Source: Octopus vulgaris
Taxonomy: Eukaryota
Reading direction: 5' to 3'
Assembly (NCBI GenBank): GCA_951406725.2
Contig: OX597819.1
Coordinates: 62,496,001-62,560,000 of the forward strand
Length of the DNA: 64,000 nt
This document shows positions 6,231 to 63,616 of this stretch, in pieces. How positions within the stretch are numbered: position 1 is the first letter of the stretch; every line of letters starts with the position of its first letter. Position numbers and translations under genes: made by a program. The notes under the pieces were generated by a model that was given only the letters and a program-made list of their open reading frames with translations, had not been told where the DNA came from and did no database searches.

Positions 6231-6834
6231 TTTCTGCTTTTAATTTCTTGGAACTACAGCATCGTTTTTATGCTCAAAATAACGTGATGGAGAACTCTTC
6301 AAAGCAGAGCAAAAAGCAGTCCTTTGACTCAGGGAGCTGAATCTGTAAGGCATGTTTCGATTCCGTCTAGAAAATAATGTCCTTGCCTCTCATAAGTAAG
6401 GTGCACGAATACCATAAATTCTTAAACCCCCTTGACTATACAAATATATACACAGAAAAAAGAGAAAGTGTGTTCCTGGAAATCACAAAGTTACTTTTTG
6501 GAGAGCCGAGACTGTTAGCCGGTTTCGTTACTCGGGTGACACAAATTCCCTTCCTCTACAAAGATAATGCTGTTTCGTTGAATGTTATAAAGCATCATAT
6601 TTCTCCACTATAAAGTTGAAAAAATATCTGCATAAATAAGAAACTATTCTTTTGTTCACATGCCCTTCTTTATAATTTTTATACGGGTGCAGTAATCGAG
6701 TACAGTGTTTTAGAACGTCACCAAAAACGAAATTTTCGGTTTTTGATTCAACGGAAGAGATAAGTGGAGTTGCTTCCTGTTACTTTATCGAGTTCAACAA
6801 GAGGACTGCGACTTAAAACGGTGATACAAAACAC

Positions 6835-7965
6835 ATGTCAACGTTTACATTACAGCTGCTGCAGATTTTCGCTGCAGTGGGGTTTTCATCTGTTAGTGAT
6901 TGCGAAGTAGGGGATATGGTCATGGATTCAACACAGTGGTGGCTGCAGGATACAAACCAGCTAAATCTCAGCGTCTTATCAACTCAGCCGTCTACACTCT
7001 CAATAAAGCATTTGGTCACGTTCAATTCATACTCCAACAAAACTATGCCTTTGTTATTTAATTCTGAAAACGAAGCTCTTCGAATAATACTTATAGTTAT
7101 TTACTACGTGTTGTTAATACCCGTTTTTGGTGGAAATTTGTTGTTAATAATCGCCACATTTAAATGTAAACAGTTGCACACACGAACTAACACTCTGGTG
7201 GCCAACAGTGCTTGCAGTGATATGATTTTCGGAACATTTTTGATAGTTTACGAAATAATCCTCTTACAGTTAAAGCGAGTGATTCCGGGGCAGGTTTTAG
7301 AAGTCATTTATCTAATATTTTTCCGTACTGGAATTTCTATATCTTTGTCCAATCTGCTTTTGATAACAGCTGAAAGATATTTTTCAGTGTTATGGCCATT
7401 TTGTTACGAGGCACACGTGACCAACCGCAGTATTATAGTGGGCATAAGTCTGTCTTGGCTTGTGAATATACCGCTATGTACAGCCTCTTGGCTTCTCGAA
7501 GTGAAGCTACAAGCGATCAAAGAAAACCTTGAGGAACATCCGGTGTTTGTGGACTCTACAGCATACGATTACGTCTGGCTGGCATTCTGTCTACTCGAGT
7601 TTAGTTTATCGATATATTTTTATGCTAGAGTAATATGCGTTAGCTGGCGACAACTCAAAACAATACACCGGAACAACAGTGTAGATGATGGGCTGGCAAG
7701 AAGAGACTTATATAAGGCCAAAAGAAGGTCTTTGTTTCTAGGTGCGTTCATTGTTTTATGGTCTCCAATATTTTGCTTTAAGATTTTACGACAGTTCTGC
7801 CGTGATATACTTCCGACGGAAGTACTCTCTAGGTTCGGCAACTTTCTGGTAAAGTTGAACTACTGCATAAATTTCATTGTTTATGCTGCTACGAAGACAT
7901 ATCGTTCGGCATTCAAAGACCTTTTCTGTTCGCGGCGAGTTTCCTCGCGCGTTTTTGTACTCTGA
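6835..7965 (+). CDS. Intronless class A (rhodopsin-like) orphan GPCR, 376 aa; true start may be a downstream Met
   Basis: Seven hydrophobic segments. TM1 GN (FGGNLL), TM2 Asp (SACSD), TM3 ERY, TM4 Trp, TM6 WSP, TM7 NYCINFIVY, helix 8 YRSAF. N-terminal sequons NLS and NKT. Confidence 0.9.
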   Translation: MSTFTLQLLQIFAAVGFSSVSDCEVGDMVMDSTQWWLQDTNQLNLSVLSTQPSTLSIKHLVTFNSYSNKTMPLLFNSENEALRIILIVIYYVLLIPVFGGNLLLIIATFKCKQLHTRTNTLVANSACSDMIFGTFLIVYEIILLQLKRVIPGQVLEVIYLIFFRTGISISLSNLLLITAERYFSVLWPFCYEAHVTNRSIIVGISLSWLVNIPLCTASWLLEVKLQAIKENLEEHPVFVDSTAYDYVWLAFCLLEFSLSIYFYARVICVSWRQLKTIHRNNSVDDGLARRDLYKAKRRSLFLGAFIVLWSPIFCFKILRQFCRDILPTEVLSRFGNFLVKLNYCINFIVYAATKTYRSAFKDLFCSRRVSSRVFVL

Positions 7966-49443: not shown

Positions 49444-49482
<39 letters not shown>

Positions 49483-49483
<1 letters not shown>

Positions 49484-49714
49484 TTTATTTAAAAGCAGTA
49501 GAAATTCAACAAAACCTGTTACTCGGAGTTTCACGTTCCCGTTCTCCGGACAGCTTTGTTAAAATTTAACAAAACTGTCCGACGAATGGGAACGTGAAAC
49601 TCCGAGTAACAGGTTTTGTTGAATTTCTGCTGCTTTTAAATAAAGCATATTACTCTACCCCTGCTATTTGAGTACTCTTTTTTCCACCTTGTTTCACATT
49701 TATGTGTTTACTCC

Positions 49715-49716
<2 letters not shown>
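49483..49716. mobile_element. Near-perfect 163-bp palindrome (49483-49645) plus tail, in (TA)n, with two opposed HHR-like motifs
   Basis: Arms ~80 bp, centre tgttaaaatttaaca. Confidence 0.8.
49575..49612 (+). ncRNA. Minimal hammerhead, core variant CCGACGA
   Basis: CTGT-CCGACGA-ATG-GGAA-CGT-GAAAC-TCCGA-GTA-ACAG. The mirror copy at 49516-49553 (-) has core CCGGAGA. Confidence 0.65.
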
Positions 49717-49895: not shown

Positions 49896-49964
<69 letters not shown>

Positions 49965-49968
<4 letters not shown>

Positions 49969-50635
49969 GCCTTCGTTTTTGGAATCTCCACTTATAGAAA
50001 TGGAAAAAACGGTCTTTGACTGCCATTTCTAATTCCTTCGGTATGAGACGAAACAGCTCGCTGCTAGCCAACTTATTTTTCTTTACTATATACTGAACCT
50101 TACAAAGGTCTTGACAATTATTTTGTCGTATTTACATACCGAAATTTACCGGTAAATAATTGTTGGTTACATGAAAAACCACAGGAAAATTATTTACCAT
50201 TTTTATTGTATTACCATGTGGATTCCTCATTCCATTACGATTACCCAGAAGGCGCGCATGGCAGAATTTTGGAGGGAAAATTTACGTTCCCAGTCGTTAC
50301 TTGGTTTTAGCATCTGCGCACTTCCCCCCACTATATGATGTCGCTGGGTCAGAAGTGAGGGCTGGTGGCATTTGATAAAGCTAACGAATATAGCGCTGAA
50401 GAAGTAATTCAAACTCCCCTTTTTTAAGTTTGTGATCCAGAAACACCGTGTTCGCTATTAACGGTGAGTGACTGAATTCGTATATTTGCCACTCCGGTTT
50501 TGTGTATGTGAGCCGCAAGGGCCTTCGTTTTTGGAATCTCCACTTATAGAAATGGAAAAAACGGTCTTTGACTGCCATTTCTAATTCCTTCGGTATGAGG
50601 CGAAACAGCTCGCTGCTAGCCAACTTATTTTTCTT

Positions 50636-50638
<3 letters not shown>
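49965..50638 (+). mobile_element. 552-bp monomer plus 122-bp terminal redundancy, inserted in (TA)n
   Basis: 49965-50086 equals 50517-50638 with one mismatch seen. Confidence 0.85.
50390..50458 (+). ncRNA. Type I hammerhead ribozyme
   Basis: ATAGCG-CTGAAGA-A…CAAACT…AGTTTG…A-GAAAC-ACCGT-GTT-CGCTAT. 6-bp stem I; base of stem II imperfect. Confidence 0.72.
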
Positions 50639-50707
<69 letters not shown>

Positions 50708-51537
50708 TCATATATACATGCATACGTACATACGCCGAAGATCTTGATAAAGGAAACTTATTTTAATTGCTCGACAATTTGTAATGGAAGAAATATTTTT
50801 AAATGGAAATATTCATGGTTGAAATGTCATTATAAATGTAGATAGTGCAGAAAATTAAGCGTTGTGTGTGCCATAATTAAATACATAATGAGTTGAGCAT
50901 AAAAAAATTCAAAACACGGACATTCATCAATCACTGATGGAAACAAAACACCTCACGCCACCCCTCGAAGAGCCAGGAAATGAGAACAGAACCAAACAGT
51001 TGTAAACTGGAAGAAAAAAATATCTTTCAAGAAAATGATGCCCGGGAGGTAACTTGTATGAACATAAAAATGAAATTCTGGTAATTTATTTCTTCATTTT
51101 TTAATAGAAAATTCTTCAGACGTATATTCCGACACATATACCATTTGGAGGAAAAAATTAACGAATGGGTGAGATGTAAAACTGTAGCAAGAATTTATCA
51201 GAATACCCGCAGGATGCAACGAATTTAAATTTCTTATTTGGACCAAGAGAATTTTGTTTTGAATTTTTTTCTTTCATTATTTCAGTCATTTGATTGCGGC
51301 CATGCTGGAACACCACCTTGTTAATTTTTCAGTAAAGCTAATTCTGCAATGAAAGTAAATTACTATGAGTATATAGGTGCAGGCGTGGCTGTGTGGTAAT
51401 AAGCCTGCTTCGACAGCGTGACACCTTGGTCAAGTGTCATCTTCTATAACGTCGGACCAACCAAAGCCATGTGAGTGGATTTGGTAGACGGAAACTGAAC
51501 GAAGCTTGTCGTATATATATATATATATGTGTGTATG

Positions 51538-52076
51538 TAAAATTATAAATATTATTGCAATACAATAGTGTTATTTTCCAGCTAAATAAAGCCCCGTAAA
51601 GGTAAACTTATAGATAGGAAATACTGGCACAACAAGGTACCAATGTTTACGGTGCTTTATTTAGCTGGAAAATAATACTGTTGTATTACAAAAGTATTTA
51701 TAAATTTTTTTTATAAAACTTTTTCACTGATCGCTGTTCTGTTTATGTCTAGGCGTATCAGCCGAATATACTGGCGATATTGATAATTCAAATTTCATCT
51801 TCGGTGAGCCTAGCTGAAGAAGACTAACCTGATTTATGATAACAAACATATTCTGGAAAGTCCGAAACTTGAGTACTAGGTCATCCATTCTAGATTGTCC
51901 ATTTATCTGGTGTTCTTCCTAGAGGTAAGACGAAAAAATTTTTTTATGTTCGCCGCCCGCACACACCTTTGCCTATATACATTCAGTAAAGCTTTCCACA
52001 GCGTCGTACGGTTATCGACTGTTATTTCTAGCAAACATTGGTGCCTTGTTGTGCCACTATTTCCTATATATATATA
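51538..52076 (+). mobile_element. HHR element with inverted terminal rearrangements
   Basis: 51543-51600 is inverted relative to 51646-51703, and 51611-51650 is the reverse complement of the 3' end 52031-52076. Confidence 0.7.
51809..51880 (+). ncRNA. Canonical type I hammerhead ribozyme
   Basis: CCTAG-CTGAAGA-A-GACT…AGTC-C-GAAAC-TTGA-GTA-CTAGG. Confidence 0.82.
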
Positions 52077-52154: not shown

Positions 52155-52541
52155 ATCGGGGTTTTGAGAGGAAATGGTGTCAAGAAGAACCAAAAGTGTC
52201 AGGCAATGCTGAGTAAGTGCTATGGACAGACTATAGTTAAGCTCCAGGTTCGATGATTATGTGAATGAGAAGTCCGACTTAGGTCATATATTAGCGTGGA
52301 TATATATAAAAAATTAACAGAATGATATAAAAAAATTCAAGGCTGCGAACAGTTTTCAGAACATTTATAAAGAAAAGGCTTTACAGATGTTTCCGGGATA
52401 TTTTATATATCCCTTCATCAGAGACGGTGCGAGAAGGGATATATGAAATATCCTGGCCACAGCTGTAAGATCTTCTCTTTATAAATGTTCTGAAAACTAT
52501 TCACAGCCTTGGAATTTTTATCTCACTCTGTTAACTTTATA
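52155..52541. mobile_element. Foldback HHR element
   Basis: ~105-bp inverted arms at ~52309-52416 and 52433-52541. Confidence 0.75.
52378..52424 (-). ncRNA. Type I hammerhead ribozyme
   Basis: TCT-CTGATGA-A-GGGATAT-ATAAA-ATATCCC-G-GAAAC-ATCT-GTA-AAG. The opposite arm retains ACAGCTGTA-AGA. Confidence 0.75.
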
Positions 52542-62366: not shown

Positions 62367-62567
62367 TACATACATATATATTTTTATATTGACAGAGAGA
62401 CGAATTTGTTGACAAATTCATTTCTGGTCAGATATTTTGACATGAAAGCTTATGCATAGTTTTTTTTTCGACAAAGAAATCTAGTATTATATAAACTTAA
62501 TGGAAAATAGATATAAAACTCAATCAATTTCTGTCGATTAAAAACAATATATAAAGAAATGGCTTAC

Positions 62568-63018
62568 CGCGACAAACACCATAGCTCTTGCTCAGCGAAG
62601 ATTTCTTCTCTGGAATGCACCTAAGTCCTAAGTTTTGGTCACATCGTTTCCGTGTATTAAAGCCACATTTTTCACCCGCCATTTGTAGGCAGCTGCAGTC
62701 CTCTGCTGATGGAAGCCTGTTACCTGGGCAACGGGATATTTTAGGGTTGCATTGATTTTGTTCATCGTCACTCTCTGTGGCGGCTGGAGAGGTTGCAGTG
62801 ACAGCGGCAAATGTCATGGTGGCAGACGTGGACGAATCACTGAAATGTGTTGTTTCTTGTTGATTCTCCTTGTTCCCAGGATCGGAATCAGATTCCTTGT
62901 TGGTCTCTGAAGCGCTGATATTTTCTGCCAATGAGATATTCAATAACAAATTGAATAGAGTTAATACAATGATAATGTATGGTACCAAGTTTCGCAGGTG
63001 AGATATTCCGTACATCAT
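62568..63018 (-). CDS. First coding exon: signal peptide, S/T/acidic linker and 8-Cys IGFBP/CCN-like module
   Basis: Hydrophobic leader ending ISLA-E; GEKC…CDQNLGLRC…GVCR. Phase-1 donor G|GTAAGC right after the last Cys-Arg (150 codons + 1 nt). Confidence 0.8.
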
Positions 63019-63616
63019 GTCAGTAGTGAGCCTTTGTTGAAATGAAAATTCTTCTGCAAGAAGATGGTTCCGAACCCGCTAGCTGATCATGATTACCGAC
63101 TCAATTAATTTCATTCTTCGCCTCTTTTTCGATGTTTAAGTCGATGCAATATGACATAAGGAACAGCAGCAGAAGCAACAAAAACAACGCCGGACCAACC
63201 GCCGACACCACCACCACCACCACCACCACCACCACCACCACCACCACCACCACCACCACCACCGCCACCACCACCAATAACAACAGCGGTAGCAACAACA
63301 GTAGTAATAGTAATAGTCAAAGGGAGTCACAGTAGCAACGTGGACCAAACAACATTATCACCACGCCACAACAACAACAATACTTGTCTGTCACTAAACC
63401 ACTAAAGCAACTATTGGTAACTCACAGCTCCATCCCGGCCGAACAATAACACAAGTAATAAAAATAACCATAACAACAACAACAATAATAATAATATTAA
63501 TAAATAGTCCTGATAAGCAGAACAATTTCGGGTTTGATTTTGTAATAATCGAAACACACCCGAAAGCAACGGGTGAATAGAAAGTCCCAGAGGCGTAAAT
63601 TTTCCCTGACTACCAA

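Follow-up and report, generated by a model that had tools for sequence, protein, structure and literature searches.

The insert at positions 49965..50638 (+) of the window, a 64,000-nt stretch of the Octopus vulgaris genome (GCA_951406725.2, contig OX597819.1, positions 62,496,001 to 62,560,000), very probably belongs to a dispersed family of non-coding tandem units that bear a hammerhead, and is thereby a copy of a non-LTR retrozyme with the insertion anatomy of Penelope-like elements (PLEs). Copies begin at scattered points of the unit and mostly end at one of two fixed sites, here called A and B, and where two copies lie back to back there is, almost without exception, one end of each kind. 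The retrozyme identity and target-primed insertion proposed in an earlier note on this DNA, made without database searches, hold up on the end anatomy of 118 sites.

The insert is 674 bp long, or 1.22 units, in a single arm with its 5′ end at unit position 1 and its 3′ end at the fixed site A. It consists of a full unit of 552 nt (49965..50516 (+)), which, if there is a circle, would correspond to its monomer, circularly permuted, and a partial second lap covering unit positions 1–128 (50517..50644 (+)), 6 bp of which are common to the TA flank. The earlier note had described a first 122 bp repeated at the end with one mismatch, a single hammerhead, (TA)n on both sides and no TG…CA ends; all four observations are borne out. 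The direct repeat (49965–50092 and 50517–50644, spacing 552, single mismatch at 50048/50600) gives the copy a pseudo-LTR-like terminal redundancy, and may be given as either 122 or 128 bp, because its final 6 bp (TATATA) run into the flank. Microsatellite target remnants, neither assigned to a strand, border it on the left (49901..49964) and right (50639..50716); a target-site duplication is undefinable inside (TA)n. An internal copy of site A, U-rich and followed by TATATA, lies at 50082..50092 (+), with the terminal copy at 50634–50644, and end mapping defines a “tail” of 119 nt (50093..50211 (+)) reaching from site A to the second fixed 3′ end, site B (50211). On neither strand of the insert is there a TG…CA pair of ends, a PBS-like TGG or a polypurine tract. 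The unit has a GC content of 0.40 and no long ORF, the longest stop-free frame in a dimer being ~100 aa, and the RT plus GIY-YIG ORF of an autonomous PLE is absent from it.

The window copy is an ordinary member of its family. Its unit of 552 nt compares with 554–555 nt in the family, and the identity of its repeats is typical for a family in which divergence is 0.59% within insertions vs. 2.2% between them. Near identity had been taken to imply a recent event, which stands as far as the family is young; the copy itself is not unusually fresh, and its terminal redundancy has no diagnostic value.

Other features of the window lie near by or further off. An older element of similar kind, with a type I hammerhead (CUGAAGA at 51814), an inverted left part and (TA)n flanks, occupies 51525–52065; it has 1,310 candidates in the genome, the best copies being 76–88% identical. 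Long inverted repeats with 86- and 87-nt arms adjoin (TA)n at 49478–49716 and 52330–52519, and are possibly short inverted insertions of other families. There are also an intronless frame at 6817–7965 (+), which we take to be GPCR-like, and a cysteine-rich, presumably exon-like frame at 62524–63078 (−).

The type I hammerhead motif (50390..50458 (+)) reads, in order, stem I, CUGAAGA, an extra A, stem II, another extra A, GAAAC, a palindromic stem III, and GUU. Its CUGANGA, at 50396, is the only one in the insert on either strand; GAAAC is at 50440–50444 and GUU at 50450–50452, stem I is ATAGCG/CGCTAT, and the predicted cut falls at 50452/50453, where the earlier note had put it. A second hammerhead-like string near 50040–50070 has no CUGANGA and was rejected. 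Because Rfam at gathering thresholds gave no match anywhere in the window, the call rests on the motif itself, its conservation, and covariation in sister families. The core bases hardly vary over ~87 sites: common variation is confined to tolerated positions, namely N7 (A/U), the extra base past A9 (A/C), the loop III base, U4 (C in 6) and the cut base (C in 2). Judged by this alignment, the core is under selection. The palindromic form of helix III is suited to a double hammerhead (PMC4209133). The window copy carries a private G>T at 50405 (1 of 30 units) that weakens stem II; since it has this change and only one hammerhead, it is likely a dead end that could not release a monomer or circle.

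A pattern for the core and stem II base had 926 matches in the genome, in sister families with units of ~527–565 nt, vs. four for a control pattern. Among 38 distinct motifs the position 3/8 pair is C-G in 24, U-A in seven, U-G in six and C-A in one. For the 33 motifs whose GUH could be called, pairing in stem I is 76% vs. 53% in shuffles (maximum 66% in 2,000 shuffles), a test that is indicative only, the rows being related. Across the sister families there is covariation both in stem I and at the 3/8 pair. The base of stem II is A-A or C-A rather than G-C in all motifs, a consequence of how the pattern was built; a hammerhead whose helix II starts with a U-U mismatch is reported still to cleave (PMC7229834).

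A search of the 2.8 Gb genome with the unit gave 1,080 candidates, the best 40 of which were scored, and mean identity over 30 units was 99.2%. The 118 sites pool the genome searches with 60 further regions, merged, and are biased toward long copies and toward B ends; a 52-site subset defined by a single probe provides a less biased check. A segmentally duplicated pair, L003 and L037, and the gap-broken L258 were kept in end and architecture counts; both were dropped for the allele-concordance and pair-independence statistics, and L037 alone for the 52-site subset, core and stop-rate analyses and for the pile-up count at positions 554–3. L003 and L037 (G000:C13, 0.27 and 0.30 Mb) have their flank and inversion junction in common, in opposite orientations, and are a local duplication or assembly repeat of a single insertion.

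The 3′ ends are strongly concentrated: of 188 arms, 87 end at site A (unit position 119–131), 68 at site B (238–256), and 33 elsewhere, several of these on other TAT-like words. TA runs follow 79 of the 87 A ends and 63 of the 68 B ends. The 5′ ends of arms are scattered across the 118 sites. A single shared 3′ end with variable length had been anticipated; the variable 5′ ends agree with this, while the fixed 3′ ends are two rather than one. By architecture the sites comprise 53 single arms at A or B, two other single arms, 57 back-to-back pairs and six complex cases, and at 17 of the 118 one arm contains at least two hammerheads in head-to-tail tandem, as against one hammerhead in the window copy. 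One two-hammerhead copy (L345; G000:C5, ~54.370–54.372 Mb) is joined to an intronless caspase-like ORF of like orientation, ~45 nt past its stop codon and with no intervening TA run; another caspase-like frame is 4.5 kb off. It is a possible read-through source locus, or a chimera.

The two fixed ends are divided between arms in a nearly absolute way. Thirty-nine of the back-to-back pairs have both ends at A or B, and of these 38 are A+B, one is A+A and none is B+B (p 7e-11 vs. independence); the remaining 18 have one end outside A and B. The 52-site subset has 13 A+B pairs vs. one other, and in sister families all 11 callable pairs are A+B, two of them read by distance. Every one of the 38 B arms of pairs crosses site A, and the arms therefore overlap in sequence, unlike those produced by L1 twin priming. 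At 11 subfamily positions, with third alleles left out of the count, no discordance was found in 405 lap pairs (128 expected) or 458 arm pairs (149 expected), so that the laps and arms of an insertion come from one template lineage. The third alleles concern two copies: in the long array L248 laps differ at two positions, each in more than one lap, and in L149 at two probable CpG sites. A one-sided A/B split with common alleles is the “tail” signature of PLEs, with a tail of 119 nt instead of 30–40 nt.

Arms range from less than one unit to 4.6 units (118 sites). Fifty of the 155 A or B arms exceed one unit, the longest being 2,529 nt; in the 52-site subset 31 sites are below one unit, 21 above one and six above two, with a median of 411 nt. 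Copies longer than a unit, which the earlier note expected from retrozyme cDNAs, exist in number, but most of the subset is shorter than a unit. The predicted cut site is traversed by 100 of the 155 arms, and neither a pile-up of 5′ ends nor indel scars were found there when family arms were searched for them (four stops at positions 486–496, the cut region, vs. 3.2 expected); cut linear monomers were therefore not the templates, which leaves circles or tandem transcripts that had not been cleaved. The stop rate is roughly flat, at 0.22–0.42 per 100 nt, and does not jump where one unit is complete. There is some structure in the 5′ ends: eight cluster at unit positions 554–3 (1.7 expected), where the window copy also starts, and 27 fall within positions 1–30 (10.6 expected). 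The region of the cluster contains a near-palindrome and a long predicted helix, and the cluster could represent either a transcript 5′ end, as a linear template would have, or stalling of RT at the helix or palindrome.

The reading we favor, and consider probable, is that the insert is a 5′-truncated copy written by a Penelope-like RT-endonuclease acting in trans, from a circular RNA of 552–555 nt. Loci with two hammerheads would give transcripts that are cleaved as double hammerheads and closed into circles by ligation; a PLE protein would nick (TA)n and prime at site A through the TATATA match, the other strand often being primed at site B on the same RNA lineage; and RT would stop with about the same frequency throughout, in the window copy after 1.22 turns. 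The predicted circular fold of the unit (−157.4 vs. −125.7 ± 8.2 kcal/mol for 40 shuffles) is more stable than that of shuffled sequence. The unit assembles as one closed contig of 585 nt (554+31) in two of four sequencing runs whose RNA status was guessed; it is in fragments in one of the others, and has no contig in the last. The two runs with closed contigs come from two studies with two organism labels and are not on record as RNA; since a collapsed tandem might give the same contig as a circle, they are a weak hint. The earlier note had RT traveling ~1.2 times round a 552-nt circle: the length of the insert fits, but is no proof of a circle when taken alone, since PLEs normally produce partial tandems and an uncleaved tandem transcript would yield the same DNA.

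That transcript is the main competitor, and takes up the alternative in the earlier note, the copying of a tandem pLTR. The element and the PLE machinery would be the same, but the template would be a linear, uncleaved tandem RNA starting near unit position 1, and the hammerhead would serve some other step. The 5′ cluster at unit positions 554–3 appears in first and second laps, the window copy included; the 17 sites with at least two hammerheads per arm could be sources; lap heterogeneity in L248 is unexpected from a single circle; and unprocessed RNA was the dominant substrate in vitro in the PLE system of PMC11167929. Also counting against the favored reading are the A-A or C-A base of stem II, the dispensability of cleavage for PLE insertion in vitro (PMC11167929), the single retrozyme in nine that cleaved in Li et al., and the negative search of GIY-YIG and motif loci for an autonomous PLE with unit sequence. 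On the other side, linear copying can only shorten, whereas arms reach 4.6 units, and at least nine in a sister family; no unlinked sites with a common inversion junction or source flank were found by eye; the catalytic core is under strong selection; and there are, for what weight they carry, the closed contigs. DNA features do not separate the two templates, and circularity seems to us likely, with linear copying a substantial but lesser possibility.

The remaining explanations dispense with one part or another of this anatomy. Movement at the DNA level, whether by a rolling-circle or recombinase-type element or as a satellite without reverse transcription, would also give tandem units, and fits the lack of a definable target-site duplication in (TA)n. 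Ends that are fixed at 3′ and variable at 5′, inverted 5′ arms, a one-sided tail and a conserved RNA catalytic motif are, though, the PLE/TPRT pattern (PMC8557442), and the end distribution largely refutes this explanation, which we regard as very improbable. At first glance the window copy alone, a core between two short direct repeats, suggests a TRIM or LTR retrozyme with 122-bp LTRs, an identity that the earlier note had itself weighed. The lack of TG…CA, PBS and PPT, the type I hammerhead, lying outside the repeat, and a direct repeat whose length differs in every copy and which most copies do not have at all refute that reading. The same applies to a tandem duplication peculiar to this locus and arising after insertion, also considered at the outset: its repeat copies are 99% identical, as it would predict, but the identical unit junction turns up on more than 20 contigs, at dozens of sites not linked to one another.

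Sister families, with units of ~527–565 nt as measured or estimated from spacing, share a motif that in the window copy is found at 50018..50045 (+). It holds the 5′ strand (50037–50045) of a predicted 10-bp helix, seen in 10 sequences, whose 3′ strand (50135..50143 (+)) is within the tail, so that the helix pairs the region upstream of site A with the tail and encloses site A; with seven of its pairs invariant, covariation support for it is thin. A genome search for the motif as it reads in sister families gave 7,497 matches vs. none for a control, and the motif is a candidate recognition element for RT. A sister-family array at G000:C1:33099782-33104988 has at least nine units of 545 nt.

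A search for GIY-YIG copies gave 6,136 candidates, the best 150 of which were scored. Among these is a young PLE family (L106–L112, L088) with a 781-aa frame containing RT-like and GIY-YIG domains, RVT_1 being slightly below cut-off. It inserts in (TA)n and ends with or without a 38-nt tail, and one back-to-back pair (L088) has one end of each kind. It carries a minimal hammerhead with U3-A8. Having no clear sequence in common with the unit, it is a model for the helper rather than a proven helper; nor did any of 45 GIY-YIG loci (of the 6,136 candidates) or 30 motif loci yield an autonomous PLE sharing unit sequence. By eye only, the last 25 nt faintly resemble the 3′ terminus of the 781-aa PLE, an impression that was given no weight. 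PLE fragments near sister copies (L329/L343, L344, L357) were considered as partners, and were taken for neighbors: (TA)n or flank intervenes.

Animal retrozymes have been proposed as non-autonomous PLEs, in a survey that appears not to sample molluscs and in which one of nine retrozymes tested cleaved in vitro (Li et al. bioRxiv 10.64898/2026.07.22.740005); circles have been shown in coral, mussel and axolotl, with PLEs proposed as helpers (Cervera and de la Pena 2020, PMC7229834). Like these metazoan non-LTR retrozymes, the family has non-coding tandem units of low GC (<50%), each with one type I hammerhead with a weak palindromic helix III, lacks LTR, PBS and PPT, and coexists with autonomous PLEs. 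Its unit of 552–555 nt is longer than the 170–400 nt of PMC7229834 and within the 51–972 nt of Li et al.; targeting to (TA)n is a difference, and two fixed 3′ ends and inverted arms do not seem to be mentioned in either. The motif and helix conserved across sister families also contrast with the description of retrozyme repeats in PMC7761336 as having no conserved motif that points to a helper.

With EN+ PLEs (PMC8557442, PMC3846280, PMC11167929, PMC4209133) the family has in common 5′ truncation, partial tandems (pLTR), a head-to-head inverted 5′ copy, a tail at one end only, a microsatellite target, an extra hammerhead base between positions 9 and 10.1, and C3-G8/U3-A8 covariation. A circle as template for longer-than-unit copies was proposed in PMC4209133, which also describes the extra base past A9 and the U3-A8 variant; in PMC11167929 two internal RT starts define the tail, and cleavage is dispensable for insertion in vitro; and in PMC3846280 the tail, optionally present on one inverted pLTR, is attributed to self-priming. 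Ribozymes do not appear to be mentioned in PMC13282606. Differences are the absence of an ORF and the length of the tail, 119 vs. 30–40 nt; in addition, site A matches the target (TATATA) where PAc initiates in vitro without homology, and A and B are strictly split between arms where PAc showed no difference between strands in start site. Plant LTR retrozymes and TRIMs (PMC4918200, PMC7761336) are likewise non-autonomous and hammerhead-bearing, and resemble the window copy in its terminal direct repeats, but theirs are type III hammerheads within true LTRs, accompanied by PBS and PPT, all of which are absent here, and by a 4-bp TSD, which here is undefinable inside (TA)n. In the main text of the open literature we came across no account of this family and none of a strict A+B rule; supplements such as that of PMC7229834, which covers other invertebrate retrozymes, or repeat libraries could contain the family. 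The circle-to-multimer model is already published (PMC4209133, PMC7229834); the strict two-site rule, 119-nt tail, target-matched priming site and conserved superfamily helix appear to be new in degree.

So far, arguments over which enzyme moves animal retrozymes, and over whether PLE tandems have circular templates, have relied on co-occurrence and phylogeny. In this family the insertion anatomy of PLEs is seen directly on a retrozyme, with a near-absolute rule of one arm per start site. The family also supplies a conserved RNA element and a substrate of 555 nt, and its host genome a young PLE protein. More tentatively, each insertion may use one circular ribozyme RNA, on which two PLE RTs would prime from both cut (TA)n strands and roll past unit length, starting at two dedicated sites, which lie 119 nt apart with the conserved helix framing them, with thousands of circle footprints left genome-wide. 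If so, a single mechanism would explain the pseudo-LTRs, inverted arms and one-sided tails of PLEs in general.
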